A DNA stretch of 64,000 nucleotides, from contig CAVZSV010000007.1 in assembly GCA_963778115.1 (NCBI GenBank), forward strand, positions 151,175-215,174. The letters run 5' to 3'. Position numbers and translations under genes: made by a program. Below the pieces are notes generated by a model. It worked only from the letters and a program-made list of their open reading frames with translations. It had not been told where the DNA came from and ran no database searches. Positions 6,717 to 58,866 of this stretch are shown here, piece by piece. Positions within the stretch are counted from its first letter, which is position 1; every line of letters starts with the position of its first letter. This DNA comes from an uncultured delta proteobacterium. Lineage in GTDB: Bacteria > Bdellovibrionota > FAC87 > UBA2466.

Positions 6717-7538
6717 TTGCAGAGTCTGAACGCCGTGAGATTTGGGGTGACATTACTTTTTCTTGTATCTGTAATGGCCCTTACGATAGGCCGCCTTACT
6801 TATGCCGATCTGAGTACGATAACCAGGCGTCACGAGCTAGTGGTCGCCGTTCTCTCCGATGATATCCCCCCTTTTAATTTTAGATCCGCTGACGGCTCCC
6901 TTGAGGGCATCGATATCGCCTTAGTCAAAGACATGGCTCGAGAACTTAATGTTTCACTGCGGTTCGTAAGATCTGCCCGAACTTATGCAGATCTATTGAC
7001 CCAACTAGAAAAGGGAGAGGCCGACATCGGCGCTTCGGCGCTTTATCCGACGCTATCACGAGCGATCGAGATGCGATTTTCAGACAGTTACTTCGCGCTT
7101 ACTCCAGTGTTTGTTACCAATCGAATCCAAAGTGCCAGGTTTGGCACGGGGGATACCTCCGTCTTACTAAAGAAGCCCGGAGTCAAAGTCGGGGTCTATC
7201 AAGACAGCGGCTATGCCTCTCAACTGCACTCCCGCTTCATTGGGCTCACCACACTTACGTACAAGGACTGGGAGGAGCTGATTCGGGATCTTCAAAAGGG
7301 CGTCATTACCGCTGCCTATATAGATCCTATCGAAATGGCTCGCTGGCGGAAACAGATCCATAATCTAGATCTTTACTTTAGAGTTTCACAATCATCGGAA
7401 GGAAAGGCACCGGTTGCTTTTGCCATAAAAGAATCCGATACCCAGCTACTTTATTGGGTAAACCTTTACCTAAAGCTTCGCCAAGAAAATGGATTCATCG
7501 ATAAGACCATTCAGCAATATTCGGGAGGCCTCCGATGA
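6717..7538 (+). CDS. periplasmic solute-binding protein (family 3, amino-acid-binding type)
   Basis: ORF track (TTG start; in-frame GTG alternatives just downstream); signal peptide; PBPb-like blocks VVAVLSDDIPPFNF and GIDIALVKDMAREL. Confidence 0.75.
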   Translation: MQSLNAVRFGVTLLFLVSVMALTIGRLTYADLSTITRRHELVVAVLSDDIPPFNFRSADGSLEGIDIALVKDMARELNVSLRFVRSARTYADLLTQLEKGEADIGASALYPTLSRAIEMRFSDSYFALTPVFVTNRIQSARFGTGDTSVLLKKPGVKVGVYQDSGYASQLHSRFIGLTTLTYKDWEELIRDLQKGVITAAYIDPIEMARWRKQIHNLDLYFRVSQSSEGKAPVAFAIKESDTQLLYWVNLYLKLRQENGFIDKTIQQYSGGLR

Positions 7539-8845
7539 TACGTAGGAGAGTCTCAAAGGCCTTTTGGCCGATGGTATATCTGTTTGTTCTGGCTTCAAGT
7601 TTGTTTTGCGCGACCCTTCTCCCCTGGGTTGCAAAATATGTACTGCCTTTGGGAAATATCTTTTTTGCCCTAGTTCGGATGGTAGCCCTGCCCATTGTCA
7701 TTACGTCCGTAACTTTAAGTTTCGCCCACCTTTTTAGGACGAGCCATAGCCTTCATTGTCTAAAGAGACTGACGGCAATCTTTGTCGTGAGTGCCCTCAT
7801 GTCTGGTTTCCTTGGGGTAGTAAGCGGAGCGGTCCTTAGTCGACAGCTTCTAAAAGATGAAGGGGTTTCCACGTGGATATCCAATCTGCTCCATGCAACG
7901 GTCCCCACAGATACCGGAACCACAAATAAAGTCACTTCACAACCGGGACTTATGCACTTTATTGAGAATTTAGTCCCCGCTAATATTTTCCTGGCCCTCT
8001 CTCAAGGAGAAGTGATTGGGATTCTGGTTTCTGTTATGTTGCTCGGACTCGCCGTGGGAAGCACTAAGACTAACGGGTCTCATGCGGTTTTGCTAACGCT
8101 TGAAGGAGTGAATGGCGCTCTTTTCAAAATAATGAACTGGGTAATGAAGCTTTTGCCGCTTGGACTCGCTTCTCTTGTCTTCGAACTAGCGGATAAGTTT
8201 AGAGGGGATTCGGTTGCCTCTTTCTCAAAATGCCTGACGGGTTTTGGGCTATCGCTTCTTTTTCTGTTGCTTCTGCAATTACTCTGGGCGCGGGCTCTTT
8301 TTCGCGAGGGAATATTTTCTATTCTCAATAAATTAAGCCGTCCTTTGTTGACCGCACTTTGCACGAGTAGCAGCATCGCCACTCTTCCCATCTTGAGTTT
8401 TTCCCTGCAAAAGCAGTTTCGAGTCAATCGATGGACCTCAGATTTAGTCCTCTCTTTGGGTCTTACTTTTGGAAAGCAAGGAGTGGTCTTTTTCTTCGCA
8501 GTCCTTGGCACTCTACTAGTCAGGGTCTACGGATTACCCATCGGGCCTTCTCAAGTACTTTTGATTATCGTAGCCTCTCAACTGCAGTCGCTTGGAACCG
8601 CGGGGCTTCCCATCATGGCTTCCCTCTCGATGCTGGCCTCCCTCTATGGTCCCTTGGGACTACCGGTCGAAACGCTAACGGTATTGATGGCCACGCTACT
8701 CCCAGTATTTGACCCGCTACTCACTTTCCTCAACACGCTGGGGTACGCGGTTCTAACGGCCTTGGTAGAAAGATTCGCGCAGGTGCGGGTACCGGTTCCT
8801 ATGGCGCTGCCAGCCGCTGAACGTGCTGAAATCGTCGTAAAATAG
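7535..8845 (+). CDS. dicarboxylate/amino acid:cation symporter (DAACS, GltP-like)
   Basis: ORF track; ATGA overlap with upstream gene; multi-TM; conserved TALCTSSSIATLP and GTAGLPIMAS hairpin motifs of the glutamate transporter family. Confidence 0.85.
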   Translation: MIRRRVSKAFWPMVYLFVLASSLFCATLLPWVAKYVLPLGNIFFALVRMVALPIVITSVTLSFAHLFRTSHSLHCLKRLTAIFVVSALMSGFLGVVSGAVLSRQLLKDEGVSTWISNLLHATVPTDTGTTNKVTSQPGLMHFIENLVPANIFLALSQGEVIGILVSVMLLGLAVGSTKTNGSHAVLLTLEGVNGALFKIMNWVMKLLPLGLASLVFELADKFRGDSVASFSKCLTGFGLSLLFLLLLQLLWARALFREGIFSILNKLSRPLLTALCTSSSIATLPILSFSLQKQFRVNRWTSDLVLSLGLTFGKQGVVFFFAVLGTLLVRVYGLPIGPSQVLLIIVASQLQSLGTAGLPIMASLSMLASLYGPLGLPVETLTVLMATLLPVFDPLLTFLNTLGYAVLTALVERFAQVRVPVPMALPAAERAEIVVK

Positions 8846-35173: not shown

Positions 35174-36244
35174 ATGACAGAAACTTCAACTCCCTCGGGA
35201 CCGACTGGCAGCCCCGGCAACTCAAATCTTGCCATCTATGCCATCTGCGTCGTCGCGGGACTTGCGATCGGAATTCTAGGCACGATGCTGATTAATGGCA
35301 GCAGATCGGGCGGTGACGATCCTGTGGTTGCAGAGTACAACGGAAAATCGATCCGAGCTTCGGAAGCCTTCCGACAAGTAAAAAGCCGTATATTTGAATT
35401 AGAAGACGAACTCTTTCGGACCAAAGAGCAGGCGATCAATGAAGTGATCGAACAGCGGTTGCTAGAGACCGAAGCGAAGAAACAAAATCTACCCATCGAA
35501 CAGCTGGTTCAAAAAGAGGTCGGTGGACCTGACACGGTGGAGGACAAAGACATCGAAGAGTTCCTCACCTCCAAGGGTTTAAGCCTCAATGATCCTCGCA
35601 TTCGTAAAGACGACGTCCGCGAGTATTTGAAGTATCGAAAACAATTTGACCGGCGCCAAGCTTACTTGAATAAGCTTAAGGCCACCGCCAACGTAAAGCT
35701 TAAGATCGAAGAGCCTACGGCTCCGAAGGTAACGGTTAACACCGATGGCTACCCCACCTGGGGAAATGCAAAAGCGCCGGTTACGATCGTCGAATTTTCG
35801 GATTTCCAGTGTCCTTTCTGTTCACGAGCGATTCCCACGGTAGATCGGATTAAAAAAGAATATGGTCCGGACAAAGTCCGCATCGTATTCATGGATATGC
35901 CGTTGCCAGCCCATCCGCGTGCCAATCCAGCGGCTTTGGCGGGACACTGTGCTAACGAACAAGGAAAGTTCTGGGAACTTCACGATGTTCTCTTTAAGAA
36001 CCAAACGAAGCTTGAAGATAGTGATTTGAAAGATCACGCCAAAGCGATTGGTCTCGATATGGCGAAGTTTGATGATTGCTTCAGCAAGAAGAAGTATCAA
36101 GACGCCATCGAAAAGAGCAAGAAAGAGGCCGAGAAGGCAGGCATCCAAGCCACCCCCTCTTTCCTCATCAACGGAACGCTCATGCAAGGGGCGCAACCGT
36201 TTGAGAAGTTCAAAGAAAAGATCGATAGCGCCATTAAGGGTTGA
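35174..36244 (+). CDS. DsbA-family thiol:disulfide oxidoreductase, membrane-anchored
   Basis: ORF track; N-terminal TM; CPFC active site in thioredoxin-fold context. Confidence 0.85.
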   Translation: MTETSTPSGPTGSPGNSNLAIYAICVVAGLAIGILGTMLINGSRSGGDDPVVAEYNGKSIRASEAFRQVKSRIFELEDELFRTKEQAINEVIEQRLLETEAKKQNLPIEQLVQKEVGGPDTVEDKDIEEFLTSKGLSLNDPRIRKDDVREYLKYRKQFDRRQAYLNKLKATANVKLKIEEPTAPKVTVNTDGYPTWGNAKAPVTIVEFSDFQCPFCSRAIPTVDRIKKEYGPDKVRIVFMDMPLPAHPRANPAALAGHCANEQGKFWELHDVLFKNQTKLEDSDLKDHAKAIGLDMAKFDDCFSKKKYQDAIEKSKKEAEKAGIQATPSFLINGTLMQGAQPFEKFKEKIDSAIKG

Positions 36245-51036: not shown

Positions 51037-51140
51037 TTTACGATGACAAAAAATGTCACTCCTATAAGACTAAATCGAATCATTGAAAGTTATGGCTCTT
51101 TGCGTTAAAATCCGCCCCTATTAATTTATTTCGGGGGTAT

Positions 51141-52907
51141 TTGCTGATGTGGTTCGTGCGGGGCGGCAGCGCTCGTTTCTCCTATCACTTTTTTCTAACT
51201 CTCAGCTTTATTGCGCTCGTGGCGGGATGCGGAAAAGACGCCTCCATTCAGCTAACCAAACCGGACCCCGTAACGGTCAAAACCAAACGAGTCCATTTTA
51301 GCCTTGAATCGGCCGAACCTGGAAATATCGGAGCGGAACTTATCCATCCCAGTGGAACTCTAGAGATGGATGATGTCGGCCAAAGGGCTTTCGATTTACC
51401 CATCGGCCATAGCCTCGAAGTAAAGCTGAAGTTAGAAGACGGATGGGAAGTTAAGAAGTGGAATATTCTTCCCGGCGGAAACGTCGATCCCAATATTAAG
51501 CAGAACTACTTCAAGATTAGTAACGTCCAAGACGATACCCAAATTTCGGTATCGGTCGGCAAAAAAGAGATTCCTAAAATAGAGACTAAGACGGTCTACT
51601 TGAAAATCGAATCTCCCGAGAAAGAAACGGTCATCGCGGACGTCGTTTCACTTGATGATCCCTTCGTCTTTAGAGGACCCGGCGAAAGAGTCATCGATCT
51701 TCCCACGACCGATGACTTAAACGTGACACTTACGCTGCCCGATCAATGGGAAGTGGAAAAATGGACCCTCTCTGCCGCCGCTGATTACGATGATCCCGGC
51801 AAAGGAACTAATCTTATCGTTAAGCGGATCAAAAGTGATCTGCATGTCACGGCCAAAGTCCGTAGGATTCCTCACGTGGCTCCCCCCGAGACTAAAACGG
51901 TTTATTTTAAATTGGAGTCGCCCGAAAAAGAGACCTTCGTGGCAAACGTAGGCTCACTCGAAAAAGCGCTTACCTTTTCGGGTACCGGTGAAAGAGCTCT
52001 CGACTTGCCCACGGCTGACGATCTCAGTATTTCGCTCAACCTTCCTGAGCAATGGGAAATTGAGAAATGGTCACTTTCAGCTCCGGCGGAATACGACGAT
52101 CCAGGAGCAGGAACCCATCTTCTCGTGAAGCGGGTGAAAAAAGATCTTCACGTGACCGCCAAGGTTCGTCGAGTTCCTCACGTGCCGCCGCCACAAACCA
52201 AGACGGTCTACCTCAAGATCGAAGCTCCGGAAAAGGGAAAAGTCTTTGCTGATATCGCATCCATCGAGAAGAGTCTGGTCTTTCTAGGCGACGGTGAACG
52301 GATTATTGATCTGCTCGCTAGCGAAGATCTCAAAATAGCCCTGACACTTCCCCAACATTGGGAAGTGCAAAAGTGGACGCTGTCTTCCGATGCCGAATAT
52401 GATGAGCCCGGAACCGGCCGTAAGTTAGTAGTCCGCCGCGTTCCCGGTGATCTTCACGTAACGGTGAAATTGCGCAAGGTCCCCTTCTTTACCTTTAAGG
52501 TTCGAGTCGCGGGAACTAGCTTTCTGAACGGAGACATTGGAAGCGGTCTGGTTAAGTGGAAAGCCTATCGCCCCACTCAACAGCCTGCCGACAATTTCGA
52601 GTTCGGCGATGACGAAGTAGATTCGTCTTTGGGAATTGAAAATATCGATAAAGCGTCGCCCAAGGTACTCACTTTCCCCAATGGAACGAAACTGCGAGTC
52701 AAGTACACCTTCACTGATTCTACCGACAGGCTGAGAACGCTTGTGGACACCATCGTCTTGGATGAAAACAAGACGTTGGACGTGGATTACCATAAAATCA
52801 TCGGAGTCGATTTCAGTGGCAAAAGCCCAGGCTTTTACCAGGCGCTAGAGATCGATCCCAAAGCAAAGCAGGAAATCGATCCCCAATCCAGTGAGAACAG
52901 GGAGTAG
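51141..52907 (+). CDS. lipoprotein with four tandem about 100-aa repeats
   Basis: ORF track; lipobox LVAGC; repeat unit KTVYLKIESPEKE...DLHVTAKVRR. Confidence 0.75.
   Translation: MLMWFVRGGSARFSYHFFLTLSFIALVAGCGKDASIQLTKPDPVTVKTKRVHFSLESAEPGNIGAELIHPSGTLEMDDVGQRAFDLPIGHSLEVKLKLEDGWEVKKWNILPGGNVDPNIKQNYFKISNVQDDTQISVSVGKKEIPKIETKTVYLKIESPEKETVIADVVSLDDPFVFRGPGERVIDLPTTDDLNVTLTLPDQWEVEKWTLSAAADYDDPGKGTNLIVKRIKSDLHVTAKVRRIPHVAPPETKTVYFKLESPEKETFVANVGSLEKALTFSGTGERALDLPTADDLSISLNLPEQWEIEKWSLSAPAEYDDPGAGTHLLVKRVKKDLHVTAKVRRVPHVPPPQTKTVYLKIEAPEKGKVFADIASIEKSLVFLGDGERIIDLLASEDLKIALTLPQHWEVQKWTLSSDAEYDEPGTGRKLVVRRVPGDLHVTVKLRKVPFFTFKVRVAGTSFLNGDIGSGLVKWKAYRPTQQPADNFEFGDDEVDSSLGIENIDKASPKVLTFPNGTKLRVKYTFTDSTDRLRTLVDTIVLDENKTLDVDYHKIIGVDFSGKSPGFYQALEIDPKAKQEIDPQSSENRE
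51276..52490 (+). repeat. four tandem about 300-bp coding repeats (first diverged)
   Basis: periodicity read from the translation; boundaries approximate. Confidence 0.6.
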
Positions 52908-52909
52908 TT

Positions 52910-53533
52910 GTGAAGTCACTTTTACGTGTCATGGCTCTGCTATGCATTCTGGTGACTCGGTTGGGCTTTGCCGATACCGATCAGGCCGATGCAGGACTGT
53001 ACTACGCGGCTGAAGAGGCCTTAACCACCAATCATAAGTGGGAATTGCGAGTCAATGCGGGTTACGATTTTTCCAATTCGTTTCTCGCTATCTATCCTAT
53101 AGAACTTGGAGCGCTCTATATGATCGACCCCTCCATGTCGGTAGGGTTAGAAGGAGCTATCTTCGCTTCCGGAAAAAAAGGATCTGCAGAGACCCTTGCG
53201 ACTGAACTTAAGAAATTTGATTACGACATGTATGCGATCTCCCCTCTGGCAAAAGCGGTAGGCCTATTTCGCCTGACCCCCATCTCGGGGCTAGTGAATG
53301 TCTTTTCCAGGCACATCGTAAAGATCGACATCAGCCTTGTCGCGAAAGCCGGGGTTATTCGATATCAAACCGCAGGCTGGGGCCCCACGGCTGGAGTGGG
53401 ACTTGAGACTCTCATCGGTATGGGACCCAATTGGGGTCTAACGATCGCTTTCAATTACGAGTATGACAAACCCACCAGTGATGACTGGTTGTGGAGAGCG
53501 GGAATCTTAGTTGGGCCGAGCTACCGATTTTAA
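52910..53533 (+). CDS. small outer-membrane beta-barrel-like protein
   Basis: ORF track (GTG start 3 nt after upstream stop); signal peptide; alternating hydrophobic pattern; C-terminal SYRF. Confidence 0.6.
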   Translation: MKSLLRVMALLCILVTRLGFADTDQADAGLYYAAEEALTTNHKWELRVNAGYDFSNSFLAIYPIELGALYMIDPSMSVGLEGAIFASGKKGSAETLATELKKFDYDMYAISPLAKAVGLFRLTPISGLVNVFSRHIVKIDISLVAKAGVIRYQTAGWGPTAGVGLETLIGMGPNWGLTIAFNYEYDKPTSDDWLWRAGILVGPSYRF

Positions 53534-53535
53534 TT

Positions 53536-54141
53536 ATGTCGAAACGCAGCACACATTTTCGGCTTGTACTCATCGCGGCTTGGATCGGAGCCTTGAGCAC
53601 GTGTGCTCTGGCGGACGACAGCTCTGCTAAAGCGCTCTTTCACGAGCTTAAGGCGGGCGACTACAGTGACGCGATCCCAAAGCTCCAAAGCATTCACAAA
53701 GACTCTCCCAACTTTGTTTGGTCCGTTCAGGAGATCGCAAAGTCATTTTATAAATTGGAGCGTTGGTCGGAATTTTTTGGAGTTGCCTACTTTTCGAGAA
53801 AAGCGCTACCCGTGTCCCGCGAAACAGAAAAGATTAGACTGCTGGAGATTCTAGCTTTGCTCAGGCACTGTCAACCCGAGCAAGCCAAAGAAGTTTTCAC
53901 CCTGCGTCCCTATTCGCAAGACCAGGATCTAAAAAAGCACTTTGAAGTCATTGGAGAACTATTACAGATTCCTGCATCCATGAGTCTAAACATCAGGCCC
54001 GAAGACCAGACAAAAAAAGGTAAAGGAGCTTTCCCAGCGGCTAATTTATGGCCGGTCTCGCAGATTCCGCTTCAGAAACTGGAACCGTACAAGCTTCGCA
54101 GAAAAGTAAAAGCCCTTTGCGAAAAGAAGGGGACTCCGTGA
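53536..54141 (+). CDS. hypothetical periplasmic protein
   Basis: ORF track 53491..54141; ATG at 53536 lies 3 nt after upstream stop and starts a signal peptide. Confidence 0.6.
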   Translation: MSKRSTHFRLVLIAAWIGALSTCALADDSSAKALFHELKAGDYSDAIPKLQSIHKDSPNFVWSVQEIAKSFYKLERWSEFFGVAYFSRKALPVSRETEKIRLLEILALLRHCQPEQAKEVFTLRPYSQDQDLKKHFEVIGELLQIPASMSLNIRPEDQTKKGKGAFPAANLWPVSQIPLQKLEPYKLRRKVKALCEKKGTP

Positions 54142-56432
54142 GAATCCTTTTCTTTTTGTTTCTAGCGCTAGCGGCGATTCTGACCCCTTCTCTGGCCGAG
54201 GCTAGCGGGGTAGCGGCGGCCTCTGACGGTGATCTAACCAAGGCGTTTCGCTTGGCATATGAAGGAGATCTTACGGATGGAGCTTTGGTCAGAGGCTTGG
54301 AAGTTCGATTCGGCCAAAAACGAAGCCCACGGGATAGGGTGCTCTGCGCGTATCTGCTCACCTTTTCGCCTCGACGGCTTCTCAGCAATCCACGAAGCGA
54401 ATATATTGAGTTTGTTATCAACGATCCCAAAGCCAAAGAGATTCTGGGAGAAGACTCTCTTTTCAGGCTCTATCGAATCCGTGGTGACGAAGCTTACGAC
54501 GATGGTAAGTTCGAACTCTCCGTTCACGATCACAAAGCATTACTCCGATCGCAAGACCGCATGCTACGTGATTATGCCATTCTTAAAGTGGGTTGGGGTT
54601 ATCTCAACTTAAAGCGATCTTCGGACGCTTACCATTTTTGGTTAGAGAATACCGAAAAAGCACTCCAAACCGGAGTTCAGAACGTCTCGCCCAACCTTCT
54701 CCATGGTTTGGCCCTGGCTCTAGTAGAAGATACGGAACGTACCGCACAGGATATTGATAGATTAGGAAAGCTGAACCTCGATAATACCCTGAAGCAGGAA
54801 TTCATCGGTGGAATCGAAGAAGGACTTGATTCGCTCACTAAAGAATCTGACCAGCAAACGCTGGCCCATCAAATCCAGACGTTGTCATGGCGGCCAGAAT
54901 TATTAGCGGGCCTCTTTGAACGATCTAAACTTGTAGGAAAACGGGCGTGCCGCCTCATCTACTGGCTTGAGGCTCCAGGGCAAACTCTCGACTGGGCCAC
55001 GCAGGGACGTATCATGGAATCTTGCGCGCAATGGGCCGGCCGAGCGGAGAAAGACCAAAGGGACTCGGGATTGCAGGCTCGTTTAGAAACGCTTCTCCCA
55101 AGATACGATCTTCATGGGAGTGACCGGCGGGTTCGTTTTGAATGGTACCGATCCTTAAAGCGAAATCCGCTAGCCTGCACCGAAGGAATTAGCTGGCTCT
55201 CGGATAAGATCGACGGGTCCACTCGAAAACTAGCACCGGTAAAAGAGATCAATCAGGTTTGCACGGACGCGGCTCCTCAACTGACATCCACACAGGTAGC
55301 ATGGTTAATGGATCGCTTCCAGGCTGGGACCACCGAATCGGGTTACCTTAGCGCTCAAGATGAACCGCTGCTTTTTATCTTAACCTCGCTACTTTCGGAT
55401 CGCGCGATTCGCGATGCTCTGGTCACGAGGCTCCAAACCAACCCCGCCGTATTTAAGAAGACTCTGGTTCCGAGCCTACTTGCTGAAAATCTGCGCAAAC
55501 ATAAAGAGAGTACTAAAGCTGCTCAACTCTTAGCTCTCTATGGAGAGCAAGCCGATGGTCAGATACGAACCGAGTCTATCTGGCAGGGGCTTCTCACGGA
55601 GAAGCTAATGGCCTCAGTGTCGGCGAAGAACTATGCGGATGCTCTGACTACCGTCGAAAAAACGCTTCCCATCAAAGCCGAGCGGAAACTGACCGAACCT
55701 CAGGTGGAGATGTGGTTAAGCGTTATCGTCAAAGCCAAAGATGATGCTGGATCGAAAGATCGTGCTTCAAAAGGACTGCAAGCTTTAGTCGCTAGCGGCT
55801 ATGGGCTTGAGTACCGGAAATTGACCGGAGCCATCTTAGAACTGTGCGGCCAATACCATCTTTGGGGAGATTTTTGGACGGTTCTTAAGAATAATAAATG
55901 CCCTCCTTTTTCCGAGGTTGCCTCTGAAAAATTGAAACTTGAACTCTTTGAAGCCATTGCTTCGAACCAGTGGCGGGTTCCAGAGACCGAGAAGAACTCA
56001 GACCCTGAATTTAATTTTTTGGTTCAACTCGCAAGTTCTCTCAAAGAACCGGCTAACAAGATCGCGCAGATTGAACCTGTTGGAAAATCGGTCCTTGCTC
56101 AGGACTTAAAGATGGTCAAAGCCATCGATAAGAAACGACAAGAGGTTCTAGGTCCAAAGTTAAGTAGCCGGGATAGGATCACCCAAGTGACGACTTGGGT
56201 TCAGTTCTTGGATCGGCATATTAAACAGGTTGAGCGTCGTCTTTGGAGCAGTACCCTATTCTATCGTACGGCGAATTCCAGTTTGGCCGATTTCTGTGGT
56301 GAAGCTAAGACTCGGCTATCTACCATGACCCAAGTTTCCAAACACAAAGCCGATTCTGTGGAGCAATGGGAGCAATTTGCACCGGTTCTCGTACAGCGAC
56401 TAGACGATTGTGAGAAGCGGAGAAACTTATGA
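54138..56432 (+). CDS. large secreted all-alpha (TPR-like?) protein
   Basis: ORF track 54048..56432; GTG at 54138 overlaps upstream stop (GTGA) and is followed by a signal peptide. Confidence 0.7.
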   Translation: MRILFFLFLALAAILTPSLAEASGVAAASDGDLTKAFRLAYEGDLTDGALVRGLEVRFGQKRSPRDRVLCAYLLTFSPRRLLSNPRSEYIEFVINDPKAKEILGEDSLFRLYRIRGDEAYDDGKFELSVHDHKALLRSQDRMLRDYAILKVGWGYLNLKRSSDAYHFWLENTEKALQTGVQNVSPNLLHGLALALVEDTERTAQDIDRLGKLNLDNTLKQEFIGGIEEGLDSLTKESDQQTLAHQIQTLSWRPELLAGLFERSKLVGKRACRLIYWLEAPGQTLDWATQGRIMESCAQWAGRAEKDQRDSGLQARLETLLPRYDLHGSDRRVRFEWYRSLKRNPLACTEGISWLSDKIDGSTRKLAPVKEINQVCTDAAPQLTSTQVAWLMDRFQAGTTESGYLSAQDEPLLFILTSLLSDRAIRDALVTRLQTNPAVFKKTLVPSLLAENLRKHKESTKAAQLLALYGEQADGQIRTESIWQGLLTEKLMASVSAKNYADALTTVEKTLPIKAERKLTEPQVEMWLSVIVKAKDDAGSKDRASKGLQALVASGYGLEYRKLTGAILELCGQYHLWGDFWTVLKNNKCPPFSEVASEKLKLELFEAIASNQWRVPETEKNSDPEFNFLVQLASSLKEPANKIAQIEPVGKSVLAQDLKMVKAIDKKRQEVLGPKLSSRDRITQVTTWVQFLDRHIKQVERRLWSSTLFYRTANSSLADFCGEAKTRLSTMTQVSKHKADSVEQWEQFAPVLVQRLDDCEKRRNL

Positions 56433-56665
56433 AGCTAACTCTTCTCTTTGGGCTTTTGCTGTGTGTCCAGATTTCTCAGGCGGGAGAAGTAGTGGACGTA
56501 GGTAAGTACCAGACTCAAGGAACCATGCGTGGGCCCGAAGTTCAATTTATTGATTCGGACAGAATTGGTTCCGATGCGGCGGGCAGACTTGGACAAGCGC
56601 AGCTTAAAGAAATGGAAACCGAATTGTTACAACCGGAAGAACCTATTGCGAAGGGGGCGAAGTGA
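56429..56665 (+). CDS. small secreted protein (78 aa)
   Basis: ORF track; ATGA overlap upstream and GTGA overlap downstream; signal peptide. Confidence 0.5.
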   Translation: MKLTLLFGLLLCVQISQAGEVVDVGKYQTQGTMRGPEVQFIDSDRIGSDAAGRLGQAQLKEMETELLQPEEPIAKGAK

Positions 56666-57774
56666 AAACCTCTACGAAAATAGAAAATTCACTCCACACT
56701 CCTCAATTGGAAATTAAACAGCTAGGGAGTCAAAAGACCAGCACCGAAAATCTTCCCTTTGCCTGTGAACTAAATTCCAAAATGATACAAATCATCGTGC
56801 CAACCTACGCACGCGTATCCGTCCAGAACCAATGGCGGTGGGTGGATATTCATAACGGACAACATTGGGGTGCTATTGGAGTCCAGTCCCCTCAAAACAA
56901 ATTAGACTTCTCTTTTCCGACCGAGACTTCCCTTAGGATTTCAGCTAACGGGAAAACCTGGCTAGTCCGGCTGCATCCAGTAGCACAAACGGGGCGACGG
57001 TTTTCGATCGGTTCGACGATTAAGTCCACGAGCTATTTTGGATTATCGCTTATCGGCCATATCAGCCTCTTGCTATTACTTTGGTACGGAGTGACTCAAA
57101 AATTTGATTTGGGCGGCTTTAATTCGGAGACCGAGAAGGCCCAGAAAGAAAAACCAAAGCCACAAGCTTCGGCGGCAGCGGAAGGTGGCGGTGAACCGGT
57201 CAGTCGTCCATTTGAAGGAATTACCTTCACCGAATACAGCAAAAAGCTTGAGGCCGCTAAACGTGAAGCCAATCCGTTAGGATTTCTTGCTCAGAGTCTA
57301 AATAAGATGAAAGTAAAGAGTGGGGCGGGAAAAGGAAAAGGTTCCGGCGTCCAAAGTGCCACTGGCGTCATTGGCTCCGGTTTAGGAACCGGGACAGGTA
57401 CGTCGCTCACCGATGCTATCTCGAATCAGAAATTTAACGTCCAAGCTACCGGTTCCACCGCCGGAGGTAAACAGGTTACCGAAAAACAGAAATTGGCATT
57501 ACGCGAGAAATTTCGAGAACTCCAGGACGACTTTAAACGTATCTACTCTAAGCTTTTAAGCCAAGATCCGAGCCTTTCAGTCACCGTGGCGTTCCAAACT
57601 CGGGTTCAGGGAAATGGATATCTCGAGCTTTCCGACTTCAAAGCTCGTGGGACTTATCAACCCAGTACCATTCCTCAGTTAAAGGGGGCCATGGCCGATG
57701 TCCTTCGTAGCGTTTATGTAGGGCCGGAACTAAGTGGACTAACGTTAAGAGCGGAAAACGTTTTTGTAAGATAA
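56662..57774 (+). CDS. TonB/TolA-like bitopic protein with about 120-aa cytoplasmic N-domain
   Basis: ORF track; single TM YFGLSLIGHISLLLLLWYGV; Gly/Lys-rich linker; C-terminal about 90 aa with TonB-C-like pattern; sits directly upstream of exbB-exbD. Confidence 0.55.
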   Translation: MKTSTKIENSLHTPQLEIKQLGSQKTSTENLPFACELNSKMIQIIVPTYARVSVQNQWRWVDIHNGQHWGAIGVQSPQNKLDFSFPTETSLRISANGKTWLVRLHPVAQTGRRFSIGSTIKSTSYFGLSLIGHISLLLLLWYGVTQKFDLGGFNSETEKAQKEKPKPQASAAAEGGGEPVSRPFEGITFTEYSKKLEAAKREANPLGFLAQSLNKMKVKSGAGKGKGSGVQSATGVIGSGLGTGTGTSLTDAISNQKFNVQATGSTAGGKQVTEKQKLALREKFRELQDDFKRIYSKLLSQDPSLSVTVAFQTRVQGNGYLELSDFKARGTYQPSTIPQLKGAMADVLRSVYVGPELSGLTLRAENVFVR

Positions 57775-57786
57775 AGGAGAAGAAAG

Positions 57787-58425
57787 ATGATTCATCAACT
57801 ATTTACCATGTTCAACTGGTTAGGATCCGAGTGGATACTCGGGGTTCTTTTCTTGTTGAGTGTCACTACCTTTGGGGTAGTCCTCGCGCGCTGGTTCGAA
57901 CTTCGCAAACTAAAGAATGCTAGCGGCCGATTTTGGGACGAGCATGGCGAAGCGTGGTTTAAAAGTGATGATCTTGATGACTGGAAAGCTCAGATAGAAA
58001 AATTAAAAGCCAGTTACCGCTGCCTGGAAACCGACACTCTTGAGATCATAGAGCGTAACCATAAGGGGACCGACGAAGAGATCGAGCGCGCCGTTGCCGC
58101 CTATCTGGAACATCGCAAACTCAAGCTCGAACGGTATGTGGGAATCCTAGGAACTATCGGATCAAACGCTCCGTTTATCGGACTTTTGGGAACCGTACTT
58201 GGTATCATTCGCGCCTTCCATGACATGGCTACCCAAGGGCTCAGCCAAGGAATGGAGAACATCAGCGGCGGTATCGCCGAAGCTCTCGTCGCAACAGCCG
58301 TAGGTTTGATGGTAGCTATTCCCGCAGTCGTATTCTTCAATATCTTGAATAAGCGTATCTCCAACCTGGTTCGTCGAGCCCAAAGCGTAAGTGCATTGGC
58401 TTTAAGTCAACCCGACAAGAAGTAA
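57787..58425 (+). CDS. exbB: MotA/TolQ/ExbB-family proton channel
   Basis: ORF track; AAGGAG Shine-Dalgarno; conserved GLLGTVLGII and GIAEALVATAVGLMVAIPAVV. Confidence 0.85.
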   Translation: MIHQLFTMFNWLGSEWILGVLFLLSVTTFGVVLARWFELRKLKNASGRFWDEHGEAWFKSDDLDDWKAQIEKLKASYRCLETDTLEIIERNHKGTDEEIERAVAAYLEHRKLKLERYVGILGTIGSNAPFIGLLGTVLGIIRAFHDMATQGLSQGMENISGGIAEALVATAVGLMVAIPAVVFFNILNKRISNLVRRAQSVSALALSQPDKK

Positions 58426-58437
58426 GAGGAGTTAGTC

Positions 58438-58866
58438 ATGGCCATCAATATGGGTAATCAGGACGATACAGGGATTAATGAGATTAATATCACGCCATTC
58501 GTGGATATTGTTTTGGTACTTCTCATTATCTTTATGATCTCTACACCTGCGATGGTTTATCGCGGAATGAGGGTAAACCTCCCCAAAGCAATGAACTCAG
58601 AGGATTTGAGTCATGTCACCCTCACTTTGATGCTCTCTGCTGACGGAAAACTCTGGATCGACAAGCGTGAGATTACCCTGCAAGATCTAAAAGGAATTTG
58701 CGACAAGCTGAAAGAGAATAAGACCGAAGGAGATGCTCTCATTTCAGCCGATTCCGCGGTCACTCACGGAAAGGTGATGGAAGTCGCCGATTTTCTCAAA
58801 ACCCAAGGAATTCAGCAGATAGGCTTTGCCACGTCCTCGGCGGGAGCCGACACCCGGAAAAAATAA
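58438..58866 (+). CDS. exbD: ExbD/TolR-family biopolymer transport protein
   Basis: ORF track; INITPFVDIVLVLLIIFMISTP signature. Confidence 0.85.
   Translation: MAINMGNQDDTGINEINITPFVDIVLVLLIIFMISTPAMVYRGMRVNLPKAMNSEDLSHVTLTLMLSADGKLWIDKREITLQDLKGICDKLKENKTEGDALISADSAVTHGKVMEVADFLKTQGIQQIGFATSSAGADTRKK

Follow-up and report, generated by a model that had tools for sequence, protein, structure and literature searches.

The closest described counterparts of the system presented here belong to the Agl-Glt machinery. Its 'core complex' comprises AglRQS together with GltC, D, E and G, and Bdellovibrio bacteriovorus carries four 'expanded core complexes', with GltG homologues of 707, 488 and 376 amino acids (aa) and, at Bd1478-Bd1476, the gene order GltD-GltF (82 aa)-GltG (Luciano et al., PMC3169522). 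In Myxococcus xanthus, GltG binds the motor subunit AglR by two-hybrid. A model of GltG published in 2025 docks its FHA domain (residues 190–329), located just before the transmembrane (TM) segment, against the AglR pentamer at its cytoplasmic face. In that model a disordered linker spans ~124 residues, and the C-terminal domain, which is TonB-like, binds GltD and takes up a β-strand from GltF (PMC11761067). For GltJ, assembly of the machine is switched by ZnR and GYF domains on the cytoplasmic side (PMC11135422). A cytoplasmic input domain on a proton-motive-force (PMF) transducer is already published for GltG and GltJ, and because the concept is established there, a further example is an incremental gain. 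Here we describe such a protein, encoded at 56662–57774 on the forward strand of a 64,000-nucleotide stretch of contig CAVZSV010000007.1 from an uncultured delta proteobacterium of the Bdellovibrionota (the whole stretch is henceforth referred to as the window). Its 370-aa product is probably a compact GltG-like force transducer of the TonB/TolA class, working in a Glt-like module of Bdellovibrionota.

The transducer gene is real and under constraint. Its GTG start codon shares the nucleotides GTGA with the stop of the upstream 78-aa open reading frame (ORF) and is preceded by the Shine-Dalgarno-like stretch GAAGGGGG; going by the called gene starts, a start/stop overlap with the upstream small gene, of 4 or 14 nt, is also found in five other loci. 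Homologues with 44–70% identity are full-length. A rough count of nonsynonymous against synonymous differences (pN/pS) relative to a 65%-identical homologue, in which codons with several hits were apportioned approximately and synonymous sites were near saturation (pS 0.74–0.92), gave about 0.28 in the N-terminal domain, 0.26 in the linker and 0.12 in the C-terminal domain.

The original prediction, made from the DNA letters, had described an ORF at these coordinates with some 120 residues ahead of a single TM helix, a Gly/Lys-rich linker and a TonB-C-like C-terminal domain, and each of these elements was recovered. Kyte-Doolittle hydropathy windows exceed 1.0 only at residues 120–148, with a maximum of 1.81 at 126–144, leaving about 123 residues ahead of the TM helix, and the same scan found no signal-peptide-like stretch at the N-terminus. 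In an AlphaFold2 (AF2) model of the full transducer, built from five homologues, this only hydrophobic segment is a helix at residues 124–147 (57031–57102). The region before it is an all-β domain with strands between residues 16 and 104, and a separate model of residues 1–122, built from 35 homologous N-regions, returned the same eight strands (86 for pLDDT, the predicted local distance difference test; 0.74 for pTM, the predicted template modelling score). We describe this β-sandwich (residues ~15–105, 56704–56976) as FHA/SMAD-like at best; in the models it ends at residue ~104, shortly before the TM helix begins at ~124. The periplasmic linker (residues 148–272, 57103–57477) is mostly disordered in the model, with pLDDT below 50 at residues 147–185 and 201–270, and its composition is dominated by Gly (16.7% of residues 147–272), Lys (11.9%), Ala (11.1%) and Ser (9.5%), Pro falling outside its eight commonest residues. 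The C-terminal unit (residues 273–370, 57478–57771) was modelled at pLDDT 80–90 as helix 274–301, strands 306–315 and 320–331, helix 336–349 and strand 361–368, an α-β-β-α-β arrangement; the domain has a TolA/TonB fold. The two strings on which its TonB-C-like pattern had been based, SLSVTVAFQTRVQGNG and IPQLKGAMADVLRSV, lie at residues 304–319 and 338–352, respectively.

Among the structure matches of the transducer are both PDB 3gqs (FHA domain) and 7zc8 (FusB TonB C-terminal domain), the pair that gave the best Foldseek matches in the published GltG modelling (PMC11761067). As a side observation, the two codes look swapped in that paper, where 7zc8 is cited for the FHA domain and 3gqs for the TonB-like domain; the PDB describes 7zc8 as the FusB TonB C-terminal domain and 3gqs as the CT664 FHA domain. 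With Pfam, no match to TonB_C (PF03544), TonB_2, TolA or FHA (PF00498) was obtained in the transducer or in 77 relatives scanned. NCBIfam likewise gave nothing relevant for the transducer and its 77 relatives, its one match being ShyA (E 0.0037, 16 bits versus a 700-bit cutoff), which is noise, and profile searches of PDB sequences came back empty for the whole-family alignment and for that of the C-terminal domain. Since none of the family matched, the Pfam and NCBIfam models miss this branch, and the protein is a member of a previously unannotated, compact branch of TonB/TolA-fold transducers.

Three independent indications make the protein bitopic and N-in, with a cytoplasmic N-terminal and a periplasmic C-terminal domain, in keeping with the topology originally proposed. 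The first is the lack of a signal sequence mentioned above. The second is the charge bias around the anchor: over 75 members, net charge averages +1.9 in the 20 residues before the TM segment versus −0.65 after it, and Lys plus Arg are more frequent on the N-side in 47 members and less frequent in 18. The third is a pair of cysteines in the C-terminal domain, at the alignment positions of I294 in its first helix and A343 in its second (Ile and Ala in the window protein, 57541–57543 and 57688–57690). Both cysteines are present in 32 of the 77 members and neither in 45, while no member has a single one. Such an all-or-none pattern is expected of a structural disulfide, probably a staple particular to one branch of the family, and as disulfides form in the periplasm it places the C-terminal domain there. 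That the organism can form disulfides in its periplasm is shown by a 356-aa protein elsewhere in the window (35174–36244, +), in which a SurA-N-like region is joined to a DsbA/thioredoxin domain (PF13462, E 4e-36). The N-in orientation is also needed for the motor-binding anchor described below and for a domain resembling TolA domain III.

The TM helix itself displays features that divulge its likely partner. TonB and TolA bind their motors through the so-called SHLS face, S-x3-H-x6-L-x3-S (PMC12204202), which in the TonB gene of Escherichia coli reads S16-VCI-H20-GAVVAG-L27-LYT-S31. In the window protein this face consists of S129, H133 and L140, the fourth position being V144 (57046–57093). 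Throughout the 77-member alignment, His occupies the H133 position in 75 members, and the S129 position holds Ser in 64 and Ala in 11; at +7 there is Leu or another aliphatic residue, and at +11 Ser is the commonest residue (18/77). When the family profile was compared by hhalign with E. coli TonB and TolA, the TM anchor alone aligned, Ser on Ser and His on His; the statistics are weak (pairwise E 0.0046 for TonB and 0.0025 for TolA, probability 8–12%) because only about 25 residues align. Judged by its sequence, then, the transducer is equipped with an SHLS-type anchor, through which it presumably binds the ExbB pentamer.

A second candidate contact lies in the disordered stretch beyond the membrane, where the window protein reads P183-F-E-G186-I-T-F-T-E-Y (57208–57237). 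Across the family this becomes [P]-[F/Y]-x-G-hydrophobic-[S/T/G]-hydrophobic, at a median distance of 51 residues past the TM histidine, with the aromatic residue at 184 and G186 present in 77/77 members; the AF2 model has no strand at this motif. Given that the D-box or motor box of known transducers is captured by ExbD/TolR dimers via strand addition (PMC10907165, PMC12204202), the conserved F-x-G motif may be the motor box for ExbD; by position it falls into one class with the D-box of TonB and the motor box of TolA.

An anchor of TonB type raises the question of whether this is a genuine TonB paralogue that energises one or more TonB-dependent outer-membrane transporters, its N-terminal extension being an idiosyncratic add-on. 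We regard this as unlikely. A nutrient-uptake TonB is at odds with the missing TonB_C match, with the absence of a Pro-rich spacer and with the fixed linkage of the gene to scaffold-like partners (see below), and no Plug or TonB_dep_Rec match was present among the Pfam-scanned ORFs of the window or the called genes with recorded Pfam matches in the related loci.

The GltG-like reading also draws on the genes around the transducer. Directly 3′ of it follow the adjacent ExbB/ExbD that the original prediction had named: an ExbB/TolQ/AglR-type motor subunit (212 aa, 57787–58425, +; PF01618, E 5e-33) and an ExbD/TolR/AglS-type subunit (142 aa, 58438–58866, +; PF02472, E 1e-25), the latter present in a single copy in the module and followed by trpF. 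Both motor genes are intact, including Asp23 in the TM segment of ExbD. Their best NCBIfam matches are tolQ (126.9 bits versus an equivalog cutoff of 221) and tolR (94.7 versus 127.3). The locus could be imagined as a divergent Tol-Pal system, with the transducer as its TolA, serving outer-membrane integrity in division. Both scores are well below the cutoffs, the transducer comes before Q and R instead of after them, and no tolB, pal or cpoB adjoins it in the window, where trpF stands after ExbD, or in six related loci; we consider a TolA identity quite improbable. The ExbB protein also gave weak matches to ZorA2 (PADLOC E 8e-6, NCBIfam E 6.5e-4), as would suit an anti-phage (Zorya-like) or other non-envelope machine whose resemblance to TolA and TonB is incidental. 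These matches are confined to the generic MotA/ExbB channel region, the protein has 212 aa against the ~500 or more of ZorA, none of the remaining module genes has a PADLOC match, and other module members have signal peptides or outer-membrane barrel features, all of which makes a Zorya-like machine extremely unlikely.

Upstream of the transducer and on the same strand, the proposed Glt-like module continues with four further genes. A small secreted protein of 78 aa (56429–56665) resembles GltF in its size and position, and its translation is coupled to that of the transducer. It carries a signal peptide together with two motifs, EV(I/V)D(L/V)G and RGPExQFIDS, that are common to the small proteins of seven loci. 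Before it lies a large periplasmic protein in a GltD-like position (54048–56432), whose homologues give weak N-terminal matches to TPR_16 (1.7e-4) and ARM_TT21_N (1e-3), and a signal-peptide protein of ~200 aa in a GltC/E-like position (53491–54141; TPR_19, E 4.9e-4, below the curated cutoff). The first gene, in a GltA/B-like position, encodes a small outer-membrane β-barrel of 207 aa (52910–53533) that matches TIGR04565 (OMP_myx_plus) with E 1e-4; the syntenic barrel genes of three related loci match the same model (L004 E 2e-5, L007 9e-4, L006 0.02), all four matches being below the curated cutoff. The ORF starts listed at 53491 and 54048 probably lie too far 5′, running 43 and 94 nt into the upstream genes: the large protein, listed with 794 aa, has 764 by a gene call on an identical contig, and internal signal-peptide-like stretches in the two ORFs begin MSKRSTHFRLVLIAAW... 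and VRILFFLFLALAAIL..., respectively. Scans for promoters and terminators in the window gave results at chance level at most.

To place the transducer among other proteins, 1.84 billion cluster representatives were searched exhaustively with a profile; only 84 relatives were reached, of which 25 fall below E 1e-30 and none exceeds 464 aa. A family this rare also weighs against Tol-Pal, which is widespread. A word-indexed search of 5.8 billion proteins returned five relatives, and further searches of that kind gave seven matches with the family profile and none with the C-terminal-domain profile, the word index being limiting. Genome contigs scanned with a narrow alignment yielded one Bdellovibrionota metagenome-assembled genome (MAG) only. 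All relatives derive from metagenomes or MAGs and have neither public accessions nor informative names, 'hypothetical protein' being the sole label.

Every retrieved locus, even those of members with ~20% identity, has the order large protein (662–835 aa), small protein (76–153 aa), transducer, ExbB, ExbD, usually with two genes of ~190–235 aa on the 5′ side. The order in full is outer-membrane β-barrel, ~200-aa protein, large TPR-like protein, ~80-aa secreted protein, transducer, ExbB and ExbD, and the position of the second ~200-aa protein is taken by a gene of 188–205 aa in L004, L006 and L007. Genes with PF01618 and PF02472 stand directly 3′ of the transducer in six related loci as well, with a single PF02472 gene in L004, L006 and L009; in L005, a 127-aa gene after ExbD may be a second gene of ExbD type. 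By tblastn, the large protein of the window is homologous to those of L005 (E 9e-21) and L004 (E 1e-7), and its small protein to that of L004 (E 2.6e-4). The module is conserved, together with its secreted and outer-membrane partners.

The N-terminal domain is missing from part of the family. Eleven members of 248–273 aa lack it and start with Met (one with Val), their TM segment lying at residues ~4–36. Two of these short forms, of 258–259 aa (L006, gene 7050–7826; L007, gene 8001–8780), have the N-terminal TM and sit in an otherwise identical operon; they are complete genes, as the small gene abuts the start codon and a missing exon would have no space. These forms seem to make up a single subgroup, marked by the C-terminal-domain signature M(T/S)D(K/A)ER...FRKVY. 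With short forms complete in the same operon, the N-terminal domain is an optional, selectively constrained accessory module on an otherwise constant machine. At the other extreme, a more distant branch of 400–460 aa (with members such as P0034, P0037 and P0044) has an extra segment of ~25 residues ahead of the β-sandwich, ending in a conserved G-P-[YF]-[RQ]-K-R that is absent from the window protein.

Taken as a GltG-like device, the transducer would pass the force of a proton-driven motor in the inner membrane on to the outer envelope. With its anchor bound to the ExbB pentamer, the F-x-G motif would be captured by ExbD as motor box, strand addition would join the C-terminal domain to the large and small partners, and the N-terminal domain would dock under the motor or recruit a cytoplasmic factor and so control engagement. 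The analysis as a whole supports the earlier reading of a PMF transducer with a cytoplasmic input domain of GltG/GltJ type. A bolder proposal, to which we give rather low odds, joins these elements further: the seven genes would be a minimal, self-contained PMF envelope machine of Bdellovibrionota, distinct from Ton, Tol-Pal and classical Agl-Glt systems, with the FHA-like domain as a true clutch that gates the transducer's engagement with the ExbB pentamer (e.g. through phosphothreonine or a partner protein) and the short forms constitutively engaged. Such a machine could underlie the gliding or prey-surface machinery of these predators; a 2026 review states that the gliding machinery of Bdellovibrio 'remains unidentified' (PMC13104615). 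Natural forms with and without the cytoplasmic domain, together with the minimal gene set, make the family a convenient system for studying the influence that an arm of TonB/TolA type exerts on a 5:2 motor through its cytoplasmic domain.

Outside the conserved module, the adjacent co-directional gene directly 5′ of it (51141–52907, +) encodes a 588-aa lipoprotein (lipobox LVAGC) with four repeats of ~102 aa beginning at residues 47, 150, 252 and 354, of which R2–R4 share 55–68% identity with one another and R1 ~28% with them. The best promoter-like site of the scan (10 of 12, 51083–51111) lies just 5′ of this gene. The lipoprotein has no Pfam match, Tandem Repeats Finder detected no repeats at the DNA level, the repetition being at the protein level only, and no counterpart was found in the related loci; it may serve the machine as a lineage-specific surface cargo or adhesin. 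On the other side, after trpF and just 3′ of the module, two ORFs of 486 aa (59617–61077, +) and 420 aa (61151–62413, +) have signal-peptide-like starts and no Pfam match, and are not conserved beside the module in other loci. Further Pfam-less ORFs encode 857 aa (44479–47052, −) and 439 aa (42111–43430, +). Between unrelated chromosomal genes, an HNH endonuclease ORF of 151 aa (PF14279, PF01844) follows an abutting 138-aa ORF without a match (47723–48595, +), and the pair may be a small mobile or toxin-like element. A suspected second module, consisting of ORFs of 1186 and 370 aa at 28–33 kb, was rejected, these being dnaE and then a Pfam-less ORF among housekeeping neighbours.

Set against the known PMF transducers, the window protein differs from TolA, whose TM segment is at the extreme N-terminus (residues ~10–33, hhalign) without a cytoplasmic domain; a tolB-pal neighbourhood is missing, the genes stand in another order, and hhalign finds no sequence similarity beyond the TM helix. 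With TonB it has in common the S-x3-H-x6-L spacing, equal to S16/H20/L27 of the E. coli protein, a gene order like that of tonB-exbB-exbD, the α-β-β-α-β C-terminal domain and a conserved post-TM motif in the position class of the D-box (PMC10907165). It differs from TonB in its cytoplasmic extension of 123 residues, in a linker rich in Gly, Ser and Lys where TonB has a Pro-rich one, in the absence of a TonB_C match and in having no TonB-dependent transporter partner in the neighbourhood. GltJ, likewise a TonB-like bitopic protein whose cytoplasmic N-domains are an assembly switch, provides a precedent for inside-out control (PMC11135422); its modules are a zinc ribbon and a GYF domain, which bind MglA-GTP as well as AglZ, and nothing comparable was found in the window transducer.

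The nearest counterpart is GltG (MXAN_4867), along with its Bdellovibrio homologues Bd0834, Bd1476 and Bd2372, with which the window protein was compared by way of published descriptions. GltG is likewise bitopic with a cytoplasmic β-sandwich just before a single TM segment, and the two are alike in their long disordered periplasmic linker, TonB/TolA-like C-terminal domain and TolQ/ExbB-type motor partner. The likeness extends to the genes around them. In both cases the gene comes after those of a large TPR-type protein and a secreted protein of ~80 aa, as in the GltD-GltF-GltG order, and the module mirrors the expanded core complexes of GltB/C/D/F/G plus AglR/S. Order and sizes in the neighbourhood match the published Bdellovibrio clusters, the TPR and OMP_myx_plus matches being sub-threshold. 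There are also differences. Neither the window transducer nor its relatives have a Pfam FHA or TonB_C match, as GltG does, and there is one cytoplasmic domain in 370 aa compared to two FHA domains in the 640 aa of M. xanthus GltG. The linker is rich in Gly, Ser and Lys and not in Pro. Within the order of large, 78-aa and 370-aa proteins, the large one is smaller than its counterparts (794 or 764 versus 996–1237 aa). The motor genes lie 3′ of the transducer, unlike in Agl-Glt, and a single ExbD/TolR gene stands beside ExbB where Agl-Glt has AglR, AglQ and AglS. At least 17 parts make up the Agl-Glt machine of M. xanthus; the module in the window is much smaller, consisting of one transducer, ExbB, ExbD, a scaffold, a small partner and a barrel.
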